Origin: Escherichia virus TH40
Length of the DNA stretch: 64,000 nucleotides
Reading direction: 5' to 3' (one strand)
Sequence record: MT446411.1
Within the stretch, counting starts at the first letter, position 1, and every line of letters starts with the position of its first letter. Both the position numbers and the translations under genes were made by a program. Of this stretch, positions 2,396-52,406 are shown in pieces. The notes below the pieces were generated by a model that saw nothing but the letters and a program-made list of their open reading frames with translations, made no database searches and was not told the origin of the DNA.

Positions 2396-2686
2396 TTAAC
2401 ACATCTCAGAAGAGGAGACCCAAGCACCAACGGTAACAACACCATTTTCAACCCGACCGCCATTGGCTTCAATATGATGGGTAAACCATTCAGAGCATTC
2501 ATAACCAACTGGATGATATGTACGGCCGGTGCCGTAATCACCAGTGCTGAATTCGATACCATATTCATCTGCGATTTCTTCACAGTGTTTTTCAATTTCA
2601 GAGGTCTTATTTAGAAGAGAATAGATAGCTTTTTCTGCAGATTTCTCATCATAATACTTGGGGATAGCAATTTCAATTTTATTCAT
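2396..2686 (-). CDS. small protein, tandem paralogue family member (C-terminus AWVSSSEMC)
   Basis: Reverse ORF; conserved C-terminal motif and conserved 3' DNA. Confidence 0.55.
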   Translation of the reverse strand: MNKIEIAIPKYYDEKSAEKAIYSLLNKTSEIEKHCEEIADEYGIEFSTGDYGTGRTYHPVGYECSEWFTHHIEANGGRVENGVVTVGAWVSSSEMC

Positions 2687-3036
2687 GATTTACATTCCTT
2701 AATAAAGGTTTCAAGGTCATTACGTTTTGTTTTGTCTAGGAACTTATTATACTCAGCCATTGCTGAAGCATATCTCTTATATATGGGAGCATTCAAGGCG
2801 TTTGTATAACAGATATCATACACAACCGGGATAAAATAGGCCACAACAGCCGGAGCAATTATCATAAAGAAGCCCATCTCAATAGGCATGACTCCCTCGA
2901 TTGCAGCCATAACCGTGGTCATTACCAGACCAACCAGACCACCGAGCATGGCAGTGACAATCCCTAATAATAAATTGGCACCAATATCATATTCAGCCAA
3001 TTGATAAACATGTGATGCAAGACTAGGCCGTTCCAT
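2683..3036 (-). CDS. small membrane protein (two predicted TM helices)
   Basis: Reverse ORF; start set at internal ATG 3036 with AAGGAGG RBS; hydrophobic stretches LLLGIVTAMLGGLVGLVMTTVMAAI and FFMIIAPAVVAYFIPVV. Confidence 0.5.
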   Translation of the reverse strand: MERPSLASHVYQLAEYDIGANLLLGIVTAMLGGLVGLVMTTVMAAIEGVMPIEMGFFMIIAPAVVAYFIPVVYDICYTNALNAPIYKRYASAMAEYNKFLDKTKRNDLETFIKECKS

Positions 3037-3400
3037 TACGAACCTCCTTAATAAATTCTTCGGCACATTTAATTTTGTGCTCTTCTTGTAGGGAAACACA
3101 TTTTTGTTCCCACTCTTTAACTCGTCCACGATATCCTTTATTCATATGATTTTGATGCCACACATTTATCAATATCATACACAAGACCGTAATAAAAGGA
3201 GCGGCGATTATTAGTGCCCAGGCAACTCCAACACTAATGATATCCATATCCCCACAAAGCACCATCATTATAACCCCAACAATGCATATAGACAGAGCCC
3301 CAAATGGAGGCATAAGGTCTTTATCAATTTTGTCTGCGTATACAAATTTTTCTGGTTTACTTGGTAGATATAGCGTTCGCATTTTGAGCCCCTTTAGCAT
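3023..3400 (-). CDS. small membrane protein (two predicted TM helices)
   Basis: Reverse ORF; likely start at 3400 or 3382 (AAGGGG RBS); hydrophobic segments ICIVGVIMMVLCG and AWALIIAAPFITVLCMILI. Confidence 0.45.
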   Translation of the reverse strand: MLKGLKMRTLYLPSKPEKFVYADKIDKDLMPPFGALSICIVGVIMMVLCGDMDIISVGVAWALIIAAPFITVLCMILINVWHQNHMNKGYRGRVKEWEQKCVSLQEEHKIKCAEEFIKEVRNGTA

Positions 3401-3911
3401 ATTCACGACATTCAGTAATAAAACGATTAAGCTTCCGTTGTTGTTTACGACTCTCTGATGTGTATTCAGCCGCCAAATCAAGAAGTTCAGCTTTATCATA
3501 ATTTTTAATATCAGCATAAGCTGGACGACGGTCAACCATTCCAAAGTGGTCACCATTTTCTAACATCAAATAACATACCAAATGGTCATCATCATCCGCA
3601 TCAATAAGTCGTTTATAATCGCTTGGGTCGTTTAATGCATACACTGAATAACGTAGTCCAGCGAATTCCACTCGTTGGATACCCAGATTTACGTCAATAA
3701 TTTCCAAGGCATCTGCAAAAGAAAGGTCTTCAGCTAAAGCAAAAATAAAAGGCAATTTTGTAGTATCACCACGGCTAGTTGTTCTTCTTAAGAAATCATT
3801 GGAATAACCTAGGTCACCACGGATTCTATAAAGAACTGTATTAGTTTCAGTGGCAAGACCACTACCGCCAAACCATTCTACATTTGATATAAGATTATCG
3901 TATGAAGTCAT
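3357..3911 (-). CDS. hypothetical protein (184 aa)
   Basis: Reverse ORF; start at 3911 with GGAGAGGAG RBS; hairpin 3921-3949 upstream. Confidence 0.5.
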   Translation of the reverse strand: MTSYDNLISNVEWFGGSGLATETNTVLYRIRGDLGYSNDFLRRTTSRGDTTKLPFIFALAEDLSFADALEIIDVNLGIQRVEFAGLRYSVYALNDPSDYKRLIDADDDDHLVCYLMLENGDHFGMVDRRPAYADIKNYDKAELLDLAAEYTSESRKQQRKLNRFITECREYAKGAQNANAISTK

Positions 3912-3920
3912 AATATTCTC

Positions 3921-3949
3921 CTCTCCCAATTAAGGGGGCAAAGCCCCCT
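3921..3949. terminator. GC hairpin GGGGGC-AAA-GCCCCC with T-run (plus-strand orientation)
   Basis: Stem-loop followed by TTTTAT on plus strand. Confidence 0.4.
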
Positions 3950-3955
3950 TTTATC

Positions 3956-4549
3956 TTACTTAAGTGAATTGATGTATTCTTCAATGTCAGCGGATGTGGT
4001 ATCCACACCGACCTGCGGGCCTTTGAAGGTTTCAACACGCATCAGAGTGTCTTCAATATCAATCTTAGTCAATGCAGCGATTTCAACAACATCATCTGCA
4101 GTCGCAATACCCAGGGCAGATACCTTACGAGTTTCGCGGATGTATTCCAGTTTAACAGCTAGTTCCTGACGAGAATCATCCAGCTCTTTAACTTTCAATT
4201 TAATTTCATTACGCATTTCAACATAATCATCTGCCTTCTTACGAAGTTGTTTAGCAGTGCGACGATACAGAAGACCCAGTTTAGCATGGACTTGCACATC
4301 TGCTCCATCAGCAATCAGTTTACGGATTTCACGCTCTTTTGAAGCAGCGAGCTGGTCTTTTTCATTCGCTAACTCGCGGATGCGTTTTTCTTCATTAACA
4401 GACTTAACGTGGGCAGTCTGGAGCTCAGTAATCTTGTCAATCAGGGTAGAAGCCGCTTTGGTATACTGGTCTTCAATAGACAGGTTTTGTGCCATTGCAG
4501 TACCCAGTTTGGAGCGGATGAATTCAACAAGTTTCTTTAAAGTATTCAT
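3956..4549 (-). CDS. hypothetical coiled-coil protein (197 aa)
   Basis: Reverse ORF rich in heptad-like charged/hydrophobic pattern; early-type promoter at 4592-4621. Confidence 0.55.
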
Positions 4550-48903: not shown

Positions 48904-49569
48904 TTATTTTAAAGTGACAAAAGATGAGTTACGAGTTTCTCGTACTAGAACAGACCCATTACGATTGATGTAATAAATCAAACTGAATAGGGTTTGATGC
49001 GCGGTGGGATGTGGGAAAGCAGTTGGACGTTCTTTCCAATCCGGAGTCTCAGAAATCCACTGATAAATCCACCATGGAACAGTACAGAATCCAGGGTTCT
49101 TGCCAATAAGCATAAGATTTGGACTAAAGTTTTTTGGTAGAGCAAATACAGGTTTTTCAGATTCGATAACCTTAGCAACAGCTGCTTCGAACTTTTCTTC
49201 GATAAAAGGAACATCTTCTTCGACCAAAACAACTGGTTCTTTGATTTCAACAACTTCAACCTTTGCTTCGGTTGGAGCATCAAATAAGAGTTTAGCTTCT
49301 TCTTTAGCTGACTCATCGCCATCAAATTTAGCACCTGACAATTCATCGTCAGCATCAATAAGGTCGGTGATGCTCAGGCCTTCATTATCATCAGGCATAG
49401 GCATGTCAGCAAATGCTTTAAGTCCTGCTTCCAGGTCAGCCAACATATTATCAAAGGTTTTTGTTTTCTTAACATCAACGCCAAGTGATGCTGCATATTC
49501 GGCTAATTTTTCTTTGGCTTCTTTTTTCTCGAGGACACGAATTTCCTCAATGTAGTTCTTGTCAATCAT
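48904..49569 (-). CDS. inh: Inh-like inhibitor of prohead protease
   Basis: 221 aa, position between hoc and uvsW as in T4. Confidence 0.55.
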   Translation of the reverse strand: MIDKNYIEEIRVLEKKEAKEKLAEYAASLGVDVKKTKTFDNMLADLEAGLKAFADMPMPDDNEGLSITDLIDADDELSGAKFDGDESAKEEAKLLFDAPTEAKVEVVEIKEPVVLVEEDVPFIEEKFEAAVAKVIESEKPVFALPKNFSPNLMLIGKNPGFCTVPWWIYQWISETPDWKERPTAFPHPTAHQTLFSLIYYINRNGSVLVRETRNSSFVTLK

Positions 49570-49587
49570 GATGAACCTCGGTTAGTG

Positions 49588-49595
49588 TATAAATA
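49588..49595 (+). promoter_or_regulatory. late promoter TATAAATA (uvsW)
   Basis: Exact consensus 29 nt upstream of uvsW ATG. Confidence 0.55.
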
Positions 49596-49623
49596 TAGAT
49601 ATATTTATTACCTTGGAATCATC

Positions 49624-51123
49624 ATGGATATTAAAATCAACTTTCTAAATTTTAGTCACGTGCATGTTGAATGTGAAGATGGAATCTTCTACGAACTCCG
49701 TGATTACTTCAGCTTCGAAGCTGAAAACTATCGCTTCAATCCAAAATTCAAGCAGGGAGTTTGGGACGGACGAATCCGCCTCCTGGATTACAATCGTAAA
49801 TTACCATACGGTTTGGTTAATCAAATTAAAAAGTTCGCTGACCAGTTTGGCTATTCATTCTGGATTGACCCACAAATCACCGAGAAAGAAGAAATCTCTC
49901 GCGAAGAATTCGACAAATGGGTCGAGTCAAAAGAAATCTATTCAGGCAATACTAAGATAACGCCCCATTGGTATCAATCTGACGCCGTATATGATGGTCT
50001 GGTCAACAGAAGAAAGATTCTGAACTTACCTACGTCTGCAGGTAAAAGTCTCATCCAGGCGCTTCTGGCGCGATATTATCTCGAGAACTATGAAGGCAAG
50101 GTACTTATCCTTGTTCCTACAACCGCGCTTGTTGACCAGATGATTAATGACTTTGTTGATTATCGTCTGTTCCCTCGTGAAGCTTGTCTGGGTATTCGTT
50201 CTGGTACCAAACGCGATTCTGATGCGATGATTTATGTATCGACTTATCAGACGGCTGTAAAACAACCTAAAGAATGGTTTGAACAGTTTGGTCAGTTTAT
50301 GAATGACGAATGTCATATGGCTACAGGTAAATCAATTTCGACGGTTATCGAAGGCCTTACGAATTGTATGTTTAAATTTGGTTTGTCCGGTTCACTCCGT
50401 GACGGCAAAGCCAACCTTATGCAATATATGGGTCTGTTTGGTGATATCTTTAAACCAGTATCAACATCTAAATTGATGGAAGATGGTCAGGTCACTGACC
50501 TTAAAATAAATAGTATTTTCCTTCGTTACCCTGATGAATTTACCGTTAAAATGAAAGGTAAAACTTATCAGGATGAAATTAAGGTAATTACAAAAGCTAC
50601 ACGCCGAAATAAATGGGTAACAAATCTTGCTCTCAAGCTTGCTAAAAAAGATGAAAACGTCTTTTTGATGTTTAAGAATATCGAGCACGGTAAATCGATG
50701 TTTGAAATGCTTAAGGAAGCTGGTCATGAGAAAGTGTATTATGTTTCCGGGGAAGTTGATACCGAAACTCGTAATGCATTAAAGGTCATGGCAGAGAATG
50801 GAAAGGGAATTATCGTTGTAGCTTCATATGGCGTATTCTCGACGGGTATTTCCGTTAAAAACCTCCATCATATTATTTTCGCCCACCCGGTCAAGTCAAA
50901 GGTAATTGTACTCCAGACAATTGGTCGTGTGCTTCGAAAACATGAATCCAAATCACAAGCAAACGTTTTTGATATCGTGGATGATATGGGGGTTAAACCT
51001 AAATCGGTAAATGCTAAAAAGAAATATGTTCATTTGAACTTTGCCCTAAAACATGGTCTTGAACGTATACAACGATATGCTGATGAACGTTTTAACTATG
51101 TAATTAAACAGGTGGAAATTTGA
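49624..51123 (+). CDS. uvsW: UvsW DNA/RNA helicase (SF2)
   Basis: MDIKINFLNFSHVHVECEDG...; Walker A PTSAGKS, DECH box; late promoter 49588-49595. Confidence 0.9.
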   Translation: MDIKINFLNFSHVHVECEDGIFYELRDYFSFEAENYRFNPKFKQGVWDGRIRLLDYNRKLPYGLVNQIKKFADQFGYSFWIDPQITEKEEISREEFDKWVESKEIYSGNTKITPHWYQSDAVYDGLVNRRKILNLPTSAGKSLIQALLARYYLENYEGKVLILVPTTALVDQMINDFVDYRLFPREACLGIRSGTKRDSDAMIYVSTYQTAVKQPKEWFEQFGQFMNDECHMATGKSISTVIEGLTNCMFKFGLSGSLRDGKANLMQYMGLFGDIFKPVSTSKLMEDGQVTDLKINSIFLRYPDEFTVKMKGKTYQDEIKVITKATRRNKWVTNLALKLAKKDENVFLMFKNIEHGKSMFEMLKEAGHEKVYYVSGEVDTETRNALKVMAENGKGIIVVASYGVFSTGISVKNLHHIIFAHPVKSKVIVLQTIGRVLRKHESKSQANVFDIVDDMGVKPKSVNAKKKYVHLNFALKHGLERIQRYADERFNYVIKQVEI

Positions 51124-51815
51124 ATTATCAAAAAATATATGATGATTTAATTGGGAGTCGAAAGGCTTCCAAACCGATTGGATATACAGAATCTCACCAT
51201 ATCATTCCAGAATGTATGGGTGGGCCTGATACACAAGAAAACAGAGTCAACCTTACTCCGGAAGAACATTTCATTGCACATAAATTATTGGCCAAAATTC
51301 ATCCCAATCATTACGGTCTTATAAAGGCCGTCATTGCTATGGGTATGAGCTCTCGGACACACCAACGACAATTTAATAAATCGTATGGATGGGAGCGTAG
51401 ACAAATGTCAGTTCTTCAAACGGGTGAAGGTAATCCTTTTTATGGTAAGCACCATACTGAAGAACATAAAGAATATATGAGTCAATTATTGAAGGGTCGC
51501 AAAATAACTTGGGCTGATAAAATATCCGTGACAAAGAAAGCGAATCCGTATAAATACTCTCAAGCACAATGTCAAGCTATATCAGAAAGAAATAAAGGTG
51601 AAGGCAATTGGATGTATGGTAAATCACATACACCAGAAGCATCGAAGAAAATTTCAGATAAAGCGAAAGAACGTTATAAAGACCCGTCTAAAAATCCGGC
51701 AGCTAAAAAGGTTGTTATAGGTGGAGTTGAATATGGTTCAATGAAACAAGCTTCAGAAGCTACGGGGCTTTCTAAATATAAAATTAGAAATTTAATTAAA
51801 CAGGTGGAAATATAA
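51120..51815 (+). CDS. HNH homing endonuclease (free-standing), NUMOD-like repeats
   Basis: ESHHIIPECMGGPDTQENRVNLTPEEHFIAHK HNH motif; repeated GNxxYGKxHTxE modules; TTG start overlapping uvsW stop; flanked by 19-bp direct repeat. Confidence 0.75.
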   Translation: MNYQKIYDDLIGSRKASKPIGYTESHHIIPECMGGPDTQENRVNLTPEEHFIAHKLLAKIHPNHYGLIKAVIAMGMSSRTHQRQFNKSYGWERRQMSVLQTGEGNPFYGKHHTEEHKEYMSQLLKGRKITWADKISVTKKANPYKYSQAQCQAISERNKGEGNWMYGKSHTPEASKKISDKAKERYKDPSKNPAAKKVVIGGVEYGSMKQASEATGLSKYKIRNLIKQVEI

Positions 51816-52042
51816 TGAAATCCTTCGAAGAAATTATGTACGAAGCATCAATTGAAGGCTTTATGGCTAAGATTGGTTCCTGCCAGACCATAGACGGTCT
51901 GAAGGAGTTGGAAAGCTATTATAAAAAACGCAGTAAAGAAGCTGAACTAAAAGATTCCGATGATATCAGTGTTCGTGATGCTCTTGCCGGTAAACGCGCC
52001 GAGCTTGAGGATATGGACGATGATGAAGACGAAGATTTCTAA
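51815..52042 (+). CDS. uvsW.1: UvsW.1
   Basis: 75 aa acidic C-terminus; position after uvsW. Confidence 0.65.
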   Translation: MKSFEEIMYEASIEGFMAKIGSCQTIDGLKELESYYKKRSKEAELKDSDDISVRDALAGKRAELEDMDDDEDEDF

Positions 52043-52099
52043 ATAAAAAGGCCCCAACCAAAAGGAAGGGGCAAAACCAAAAATGGTTAACAACACTAG

Positions 52100-52267
52100 C
52101 TAAATTAAAAGTTGGGTCTCGTTCAGTTGCTCTTCTGTATTTTCCGTAACTGGCAAACTCTGAACATAATTATAACAGGCGCCCGGATGCACCGGACCTT
52201 GGTCTGTATCCACAACCAATGCAGAATCGATTGGAGTTTTACAGACAACACAAATCTTATCTGACAT
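52100..52267 (-). CDS. small Cys-containing protein (uvsY.-2 position)
   Basis: 55-aa reverse ORF read by eye (MSDKICVVCKTPIDS...); not in supplied ORF track because under 60 aa. Confidence 0.3.
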   Translation of the reverse strand: MSDKICVVCKTPIDSALVVDTDQGPVHPGACYNYVQSLPVTENTEEQLNETQLLI

Positions 52268-52406
52268 GATTGTCTCCTCAGTTAAACTTACATATCTATT
52301 TAGTGCTCTTCATAATAGCAGCACGAGCTTTCATCTCATTAACAATTTCAGTTATTCGGTTTGCAGAGATAACCATCTCGTCGAGAATCTTACTAATATT
52401 TTTCAT

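Follow-up and report, generated by a model that had tools for sequence, protein, structure and literature searches.

T4-like phages commonly carry homing endonuclease genes. Those closest to the locus described here include: (i) mobE of T4, where the UAAUGA overlap between the nrdA stop and the mobE start is discussed as translational coupling (PMC2988022), (ii) segE of T4, which encodes a GIY-YIG homing endonuclease between inh and uvsW and has uvsW as its documented target (PMC2988022, Table 1), and (iii) segH and hef, which replace mobC and mobE in T4 relatives, such that different endonucleases occupy one locus (cited in PMC2988022). As SegE targets uvsW, this gene is already known as a homing endonuclease target. 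Outside of phages, mobile open reading frames (ORFs) with a carboxy-terminal duplication are described from fungal mitochondria, in atp6 of Allomyces macrogynus and in atp6, atp9, cox2 and nad3 of Glomus (PMC3630166). The fungal elements lie at the 3' end of their host gene and combine an endonuclease ORF with a more divergent replacement of the C-terminal piece, and the native terminus lies downstream and matches that of element-free relatives (PMC3630166). The locus considered here is the uvsW/uvsW.1 junction of Escherichia virus TH40 (sequence record MT446411.1), analysed within a stretch of 64,000 nucleotides (nt) that is termed the window. A MobE-like HNH homing endonuclease is encoded at this junction, as a clean insertion of 692 base pairs (bp) compared to relatives without the gene, and the mobile unit is probably a replacement uvsW 3' end together with the endonuclease gene.

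The insertion and its 19-nt repeat

The genes and repeat copies that define the junction are:

49624..51123, plus strand: uvsW helicase gene, 499 codons and a TGA stop at 51121-51123 (Pfam UvsW_N, 1e-39; ResIII; Helicase_C).
51101..51119, plus strand: repeat copy 1, the last uvsW codons (V-IKQVEI), with AGGTGG at 51110-51115.
51120..51815, plus strand: free-standing HNH homing endonuclease gene, 231 codons, TTG start, TAA stop.
51793..51811, plus strand: repeat copy 2, read as the last endonuclease codons (L-IKQVEI), with AGGTGG 7 nt before the uvsW.1 ATG.
51815..52042, plus strand: uvsW.1, 75 codons (Pfam UvsW-1, 1e-24; PHROG 1143).

The exact direct repeat TAATTAAACAGGTGGAAAT is present at 51101-51119 and 51793-51811, at a spacing of 692 nt. 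With up to two mismatches allowed, only these two matches are found in the 64 kb, and none of 100 shuffled sequences gave two or more. A chance origin of the repeat is rejected, as 0.01 matches are expected from the shuffles and two are found. The initial annotation, made from the sequence without database searches, had placed a 19-bp direct repeat on either side of the endonuclease gene; the repeat stands, while the second copy, given there as 51794-51812, lies one base further upstream.

The uvsW and endonuclease ORFs are in different genomic frames but read the repeat in the same register, and thus UvsW ends in VIKQVEI (...NYVIKQVEI*) and the endonuclease in LIKQVEI (...IRNLIKQVEI*). The translations agree with the earlier observation that both proteins end in IKQVEI, as does the sequence with a TTG start that overlaps the uvsW stop: the TTG (51120-51122) and the TGA are joined as ATTTGA. 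At the other end, the endonuclease TAA (51813-51815) overlaps the uvsW.1 ATG as TAATG. The AGGTGG of copy 1 (51110-51115) is a Shine-Dalgarno sequence 4 nt ahead of the TTG, and each repeat copy contains the Shine-Dalgarno sequence of the next gene downstream. UvsW is kept at full length by an insertion that also leaves the uvsW.1 Shine-Dalgarno sequence, with its 7-nt spacing, and the TAATG overlap intact.

Endonuclease-free relatives within Gaprivervirus (VR7, VR20, VR25, VR26, EAWsc9, TH57 and others) have a single copy of the repeat, in the junction GTAATTAAACAGGTGGAAATATAATG, and are exactly 692 bp shorter; megablast alignments span 909 nt in endonuclease-free and 1601 nt in endonuclease-bearing genomes. 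The flanks are at least 95% identical between the two groups. Removal of 692 bp from the window in silico restores the endonuclease-free junction, and the window sequence from 51793 onward is identical to the uvsW/uvsW.1 junction of the endonuclease-free relatives. The comparison with insert-free junctions proposed in the initial annotation thus gave a single copy and a 692-bp difference, and none of the genomes compared has the duplication without the endonuclease, the observation named there as one that would speak against an insertion. Judged from these alignments, copy 1 is the sequence that completes uvsW and that supplies both the ribosome-binding site and the overlapping stop/start for the endonuclease. 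Copy 2 is, by the same comparison, the resident uvsW end, into which the endonuclease ORF, without a stop of its own, reads before it terminates at the old uvsW stop. Because the ORF ends in the resident copy, the uvsW.1 ribosome-binding site and TAATG overlap are left untouched.

The same perfect repeat is found in all five genomes with the window-type (type A) endonuclease: the window, SP18, pEC-M719-6WT.2, UPEC01 and DK-13. Synonymous divergence among these five type A Gaprivervirus endonucleases reaches 0.28, yet the ten repeat copies are all identical, which argues that the copies are conserved or homogenised and not merely young.

Flanking gene assignments are likewise consistent with the earlier view that uvsW and uvsW.1 border the gene and are adjacent in T4; the Pfam matches agree, and the two are separate, adjoining ORFs in T4 and in the insert-free relatives. 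The uvsW start and length also agree with the annotated uvsW of SP18 and VR7. In the T4 RefSeq record NC_000866.4, uvsW and uvsW.1 are annotated as a single 587-codon ORF (locus coordinates 2678-4441), with an extra A in ...AATTTAATAAG that masks the uvsW stop present in other Tequatrovirus genomes. The fusion is a known sequencing error, noted in 2004-2007.

The endonuclease and its gene

The elements of the endonuclease and its gene are:

51183..51299, plus strand: HNH nuclease core (predicted beta-beta-alpha-metal fold), residues ~22-60, ...YTESHHIIPECMGG...N...EEHFIAH.
51399..51656, plus strand: two NUMOD3 DNA-binding modules, GEGNPFYGKHHTEEHK and GEGNWMYGKSHTPEASK (Pfam NUMOD3).
51711..51806, plus strand: C-terminal beta-beta-helix-turn-helix module, residues 198-229, from the AlphaFold2 model.
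51120..51150, plus strand: possible 11-bp A/U-rich hairpin over the TTG start (RNA fold z-score -2.35).

All parts of the initial description of the protein, a 231-codon ORF with an HNH motif and two GNxxYGKxHTxE repeats, are present. The ORF matches PHROG 655 ('homing endonuclease', 6e-57) and carries the catalytic motif SHHIIPECMGG...N...EEHFIAH, of which H27, N41, H50 and H54 are invariant in an alignment of 47 homologues; the Pfam HNH match is sub-threshold (13.8 bits vs a cut-off of 21.4). Residues 1-72 are 58% identical to the nuclease domain of T4 MobE and share the start MNYQKIY.DLI, and the remainder is unrelated to MobE. The two stretches that match NUMOD3 (PF07460) do so with an E value of 7e-19 and 67.9 bits, against a cut-off of 20.4.

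An AlphaFold2 model of the protein (mean predicted local distance difference test score, 89.9) has strands at residues 24-27 and 42-45 and a helix at 47-60 in the core (residues 24-60), followed by helical modules, and the last helix of the C-terminal module (219-229) is encoded in part by repeat copy 2. Foldseek matches the model to HNH domains (probability 0.84, but E >0.1) and to the DNA-binding domain of I-TevI (1i3j_A; probability 0.99, but E 0.15). A match to TIGR01453 over residues 92-228 (9e-8) falls under the cut-off of that family, and a sequence search of the PDB gave weak HNH matches alone (IscB and McrA, E >=0.06). Taken together, the predicted domains place the gene among the free-standing homing endonuclease genes of T4 Mob type, with a MobE-like HNH domain, two NUMOD3 modules and a predicted I-TevI-like helix-turn-helix. 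No Rfam family was found in 49400-52400; thus, the gene is not within a group I intron and is considered free-standing. The window contains no paralogues of the endonuclease. Among ~5.8 billion proteins searched, one from NCBI is identical, 13 are orthologues over the full length, and over 1000 are relatives that combine HNH and NUMOD3. Ratios of nonsynonymous to synonymous substitution (dN/dS) among the orthologues are 0.02-0.11, indicating that the endonuclease is under strong purifying selection and is no decaying remnant.

The position of the start codon is kept in nine orthologues as TTG, ATG or GTG, always with an NTGA overlap with the uvsW stop. In SP18 (SP18_gp197), pEC-M719-6WT.2 and UPEC01 the endonuclease is annotated from an internal ATG as a 199-residue protein (locus coordinates 2017-2616), such that the conserved N-terminus is lost together with the 'SHH' of the catalytic motif. 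The conserved start is the TTG position that overlaps the uvsW stop, as annotated in DK-13, UP19 and P8; the three GenBank records that use the internal ATG, and so lose part of the catalytic motif, can be corrected accordingly. The predicted start hairpin pairs the TTG region UUGAAUUAUCA with UGAUGAUUUAA, and most orthologues, as well as T4 mobE, could fold in this way. Across the nine orthologues 81% of cells pair, yet covariation is not above that of the shuffles; a functional hairpin is not claimed, as the conserved NYQKIYDDLI coding sequence can account for the conservation.

Distribution and reuse of the resident uvsW tail

Seven genera have the gene at the same uvsW/uvsW.1 site, and in each group counted only a minority of the genomes carry it. 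Outside of Gaprivervirus, orthologues of 57-85% amino-acid identity occupy this junction in six further genera: Dhakavirus (UP19, PSD2002 and ESCO10), Tequatrovirus (ACG-C40, HY03 and others), Jiaodavirus-like Klebsiella phages, Moonvirus, Gualtarvirus and Bragavirus. Gaprivervirus and Dhakavirus account for eight records, plus two with a second endonuclease type, while the gene is carried by 49 of 509 Tequatrovirus-like records and 13 of 186 records of Jiaodavirus-like Klebsiella phages. GenBank labels for the gene in these relatives are 'homing endonuclease', 'MobE' and 'group I intron endonuclease'.

The second type (type B) is found in two Gaprivervirus members, Yersinia phage vB_YenM_P8 and Escherichia phage P479, which carry a different HNH endonuclease of 261 residues at the identical uvsW/uvsW.1 site (locus coordinates 1921-2706). 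This enzyme shares with the window protein only the first ~65 residues (54% identity, HNH domain), of which the first 11 are common to both, and the final IKQVEI; no NUMOD3 motif was found in its 261 residues. In these phages uvsW ends in VVKHVEL, and the resident IKQVEI tail is kept downstream as the end of the endonuclease.

Reuse of the tail was judged in four genera, where an endonuclease-free relative was comparable. In Gaprivervirus (types A and B), Dhakavirus, Tequatrovirus and Jiaodavirus, the endonuclease 3' end is the native uvsW tail and stop of its own genus:

Gaprivervirus, native uvsW tail at the endonuclease 3' end: ...ATTAAACAGGTGGAAATATAA
Dhakavirus, native uvsW tail at the endonuclease 3' end: ...ATGAAACAGGTGGATTTATGA
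Tequatrovirus, native uvsW tail at the endonuclease 3' end: ...AAAACAGTTAATTTATAA
Jiaodavirus, native uvsW tail at the endonuclease 3' end: only ...AAyCTATGA

Outside of type A Gaprivervirus, uvsW by contrast is completed by a non-native copy, encoding KEVQI in Dhakavirus, KEVKL in Tequatrovirus and VVKHVEL in type B Gaprivervirus, and differing from the native tail by synonymous changes in Jiaodavirus. The uvsW tail itself is thus divergent in P8/P479, UP19, ACG-C40 and Wolf_ER13, while in the window the 19-nt copies are identical. The length of the repeat varies by lineage (19, 18, 16 and ~8 nt). The initial annotation had proposed that the endonuclease gene 'carried or recreated' the target 3' end. 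The comparison among four genera sharpens this statement: the downstream copy is the resident end, and the upstream copy, which now finishes uvsW and is divergent in Dhakavirus, Tequatrovirus, Jiaodavirus and type B Gaprivervirus, appears to travel or co-convert with the endonuclease.

Other nuclease-type genes are noted at uvsW. In Proteus phage PM2, a 291-residue ORF (locus coordinates 46-921) interrupts uvsW, leaving two 'DNA helicase' ORFs; the interrupting ORF has a weak match to the N-terminal domain of TnsA-like endonucleases (Pfam, E 2.6e-4) and matches PHROG 15427 ('endonuclease', 1.7e-27); this is a second nuclease-type insertion in uvsW, besides the endonuclease at the uvsW/uvsW.1 junction of the same phage. 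The uvsW gene of ACG-C40 has homing endonuclease genes on both sides, a seg-type gene at inh/uvsW (locus coordinates 1-293) and the HNH gene at uvsW/uvsW.1. The seg-type gene is annotated as SegA and occupies the position of T4 segE (T4 locus coordinates 2058-2675).

Divergence of the flanking genes

Flanks were compared between endonuclease-bearing genomes and the nearest endonuclease-free genome in four genera. Further than 300 nt upstream of its stop, uvsW is 0-9% divergent in all four, while the final 200-300 nt are 10-34% divergent in Dhakavirus, Tequatrovirus, Jiaodavirus and type B Gaprivervirus. On the other side, uvsW.1 is 0-8% divergent in most pairs, with the exceptions of PSD2002 vs NC-G (14-16%) and UP19 vs NC-G (24% in the last 25 nt). 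The corresponding stretch of the window is milder than in the other genera:

50900..51099, plus strand: endonuclease-linked divergent stretch at the uvsW 3' end, containing the haplotype GAACGTTTTAACTAT.

Here the window differs by 6-23% from its nearest endonuclease-free relatives, compared to 0-5% further upstream. The haplotype GAACGTTTTAACTAT is found in seven of seven endonuclease-bearing Gaprivervirus genomes, with one base different in DK-13 and pEC-M719-6WT.2, vs one of 18 endonuclease-free genomes (VR7); a Fisher test on these counts gives ~2e-5, ignoring relatedness among the genomes. The divergent tract and the linked haplotype, both correlative, may represent a signature of co-conversion or of a resistant allele.

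The exception, VR7, is without the endonuclease; over the final 200 nt of uvsW it has the endonuclease-linked haplotype and 97% identity to the window, while in uvsW.1 it is 14-16% divergent; the mosaic breakpoint is at the insertion site (~locus position 1924). Such close identity on the left and divergence on the right point to a recombination breakpoint at the junction. VR7 could have lost the gene precisely, by recombination between the 19-bp copies, or could represent the naive allele into which the gene first moved. In other phages, nuclease genes are described where tracts of genetic exchange end (PMC10448857).

Proposed mechanism and alternative explanations

The endonuclease would be transcribed on the uvsW late transcript, from the following site:

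49588..49595, plus strand: late-promoter-like site TATAAATA, read in the sequence, 29 nt upstream of the uvsW ATG.

This site matches the T4 late-promoter consensus and is presumably a late promoter, from general knowledge of such promoters in T4, and is likely the source of a transcript covering uvsW, the endonuclease gene and uvsW.1. The endonuclease would be translated at a low level, coupled to translation of uvsW, similarly to the coupling proposed for nrdA/mobE of T4 (PMC2988022). In a mixed infection, the enzyme would nick or cut somewhere in the final 200-300 bp of an endonuclease-free uvsW allele, and recombinational repair would copy the endonuclease gene together with the uvsW stretch between the cut and the gene, with the right-hand joint of the mobile unit inside the resident uvsW tail. 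A cut in the uvsW 3' end followed by repair copying would produce both a one-sided divergent tract and a right-hand joint within the resident tail, and the substitute uvsW 3' end is presumably resistant to cleavage by its own endonuclease. The perfect 19-bp repeat would in addition permit a precise loss of the gene that regenerates the endonuclease-free junction. The initial description of the locus as the footprint of a mobile endonuclease gene is supported by the patchy distribution, the 58% identity to MobE, the linked flank haplotype and the clean insertion.

Several points weigh against insertion by homing with a replacement uvsW end. As both repeat copies are identical in the window, the copy that was brought in cannot be distinguished from this genome alone. 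The Jiaodavirus genomes share ~8 nt of the resident tail and no more, and in Moonvirus and Gualtarvirus there is no clear repeat and no endonuclease-free relative for comparison. The putative cleavage target is placed from divergence patterns, and none of the sampled genomes resembles the divergent uvsW tracts more closely, as a donor would, than the endonuclease-free allele of the same genus. The sample of genomes is small and phylogenetically non-independent. Finally, amino-acid identity between genera is similar for the endonuclease and UvsW (86% vs 85% with Dhakavirus, 59-66% vs 62-78% elsewhere); a divergence that tracks uvsW in this way would be expected equally from recent transfer and from a long vertical residence interrupted by losses.

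This last point leads to the alternative that survives best, although it is held to be unlikely: an endonuclease that resided at the site before the genera split, was inherited mostly vertically and is perhaps domesticated or non-homing, with endonuclease-free genomes that arose by deletion across the duplicated tail. An old resident would account for endonuclease divergence that parallels that of both uvsW and uvsW.1 between genera, and strong purifying selection would fit a domesticated function as well as homing. Deletion across the perfect 19-bp repeat predicts the exact endonuclease-free junction, and VR7 has the endonuclease-linked left haplotype without the gene. Carriers are, however, ~7-10% of the genomes per genus, such that very many independent losses would be required, and the tail copies of Tequatrovirus, Dhakavirus and type B Gaprivervirus differ, such that precise repeat-mediated loss is unavailable where endonuclease-free genomes still dominate. 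The sharp one-sided divergent tract is, moreover, predicted by homing with co-conversion and not by deletion. Old residence is partly compatible with the preferred reading of a homing insertion, if the two are seen as a cycle of gain and loss.

A neutral scar is judged distinctly improbable. Here the repeat would derive from a single illegitimate, microhomology-mediated insertion, have no role in expression or stability, and owe the identity of its copies only to a recent event. The native C-termini of endonucleases (...RKLLK in Rgz1 and ...RKML in PM2) do resemble the uvsW tail V[IM]K... and could offer such microhomology, and uvsW.1 of Tequatrovirus has its own spacer and Shine-Dalgarno sequence, so the 18-nt duplication is unneeded for its translation. 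Recent origin is nevertheless difficult to reconcile with ten identical repeat copies among type A endonucleases at 0.28 synonymous divergence, and absence of function with an AGGTGG that lies at workable distances (4 nt and 7 nt) from the next start and a stop/start overlap preserved in every lineage. Duplication of a target site by a transposase-like mechanism would explain an insert flanked by a direct repeat, but is rejected as essentially refuted by the lineage comparisons, since neither a transposase nor terminal inverted repeats occur, the sole ORF is an HNH endonuclease, one repeat copy is inside the ORF, the repeat length differs by lineage, and the upstream copy outside the window lineage is divergent and not duplicated.

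If insertion by homing is correct, the one-sided divergent tract places the likely cleavage target in the last 200-300 bp of uvsW, and the perfect 19-nt duplication would make the insertion precisely reversible in the window lineage, such that a cycle of gain and loss may be observable, with VR7 as a candidate loss product.

Neighbouring genes and other features

The window has the gene order of a T4-type phage (hoc, inh, uvsW, the extra ORF, uvsW.1, uvsY.-2, uvsY.-1, uvsY, 25 and 26), and is closest to SP18 and VR7 of Gaprivervirus, with 92-96% nucleotide identity. There is no seg gene between inh and uvsW in the window; inh adjoins uvsW. A scan for sigma-70 promoters and terminators found sites no more numerous than in shuffled sequence. 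An imperfect 21-nt direct repeat (81% identity) connects the endonuclease 3' region (51762-51782) to the end of uvsW.1 (52029-52049) and probably arose by chance in A/T-rich sequence.

Comparison with known systems

The element belongs to an ordinary class, and its compact architecture is apparently undescribed in phages; in the literature outside subscription journals, no paper was found that describes either the tail duplication or an endonuclease gene between uvsW and uvsW.1. The new detail is that the gene fits into a tightly coupled operon without harm to its neighbours, by duplicating the last codons of uvsW and borrowing its stop. It is possible, although proposed only tentatively, that this is the first mobile cassette from a phage to be composed of a replacement host-gene 3' end and an endonuclease, present in at least five genera of Straboviridae with two unrelated DNA-binding regions, having no stop of its own and ending in the resident tail, and reversible in the window lineage.

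By nuclease domain and by proposed mode of expression, T4 MobE is the closest relative. Similarly to T4 MobE, the endonuclease is free-standing between two genes of one operon (nrdA/nrdB for MobE), has a start codon that overlaps the upstream stop and has a nuclease domain that is 58% identical over 72 residues. MobE is by contrast a protein of 141 residues, and the window protein has a different C-terminal region, with two NUMOD3 modules and a predicted helix-turn-helix. The insertion sites also differ, the presumed target is nrdB for MobE and uvsW here, and the window gene starts with TTG and has as its 3' end a duplicated fragment of the gene upstream, which is unreported for mobE. T4 SegE is likewise a free-standing homing endonuclease encoded beside uvsW, but it is of a different nuclease family, is encoded on the other side of uvsW and is absent from the window. 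Two NUMOD3 motifs are shared with the DNA-binding domains of I-TevI and I-HmuI; unlike these, the window gene is not intron-encoded, and the nuclease of I-TevI is GIY-YIG while that of the window protein is HNH. The different endonuclease of P8 and P479 at the same uvsW/uvsW.1 site follows the precedent of SegH and Hef, with the distinction that the two uvsW/uvsW.1 endonucleases share the first 11 residues and an HNH domain and have the resident IKQVEI as a common C-terminus.

The mobile ORFs of fungal mitochondria share the pattern seen in four phage genera, in which the native piece is downstream and the inserted end is divergent. The phage elements differ in that the native piece retained is at most 19 nt (6-7 codons), in that it is the endonuclease ORF, in place of the host gene, that continues through the native piece to its stop, and in the nuclease family, which is HNH in the phages and LAGLIDADG or GIY-YIG in fungal mitochondria. 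The duplicated 19 nt of the window are in addition identical and not divergent, while the ~200 nt before them are 6-23% divergent. The fungal parallel suggests that the same solution was reached by very different genomes.

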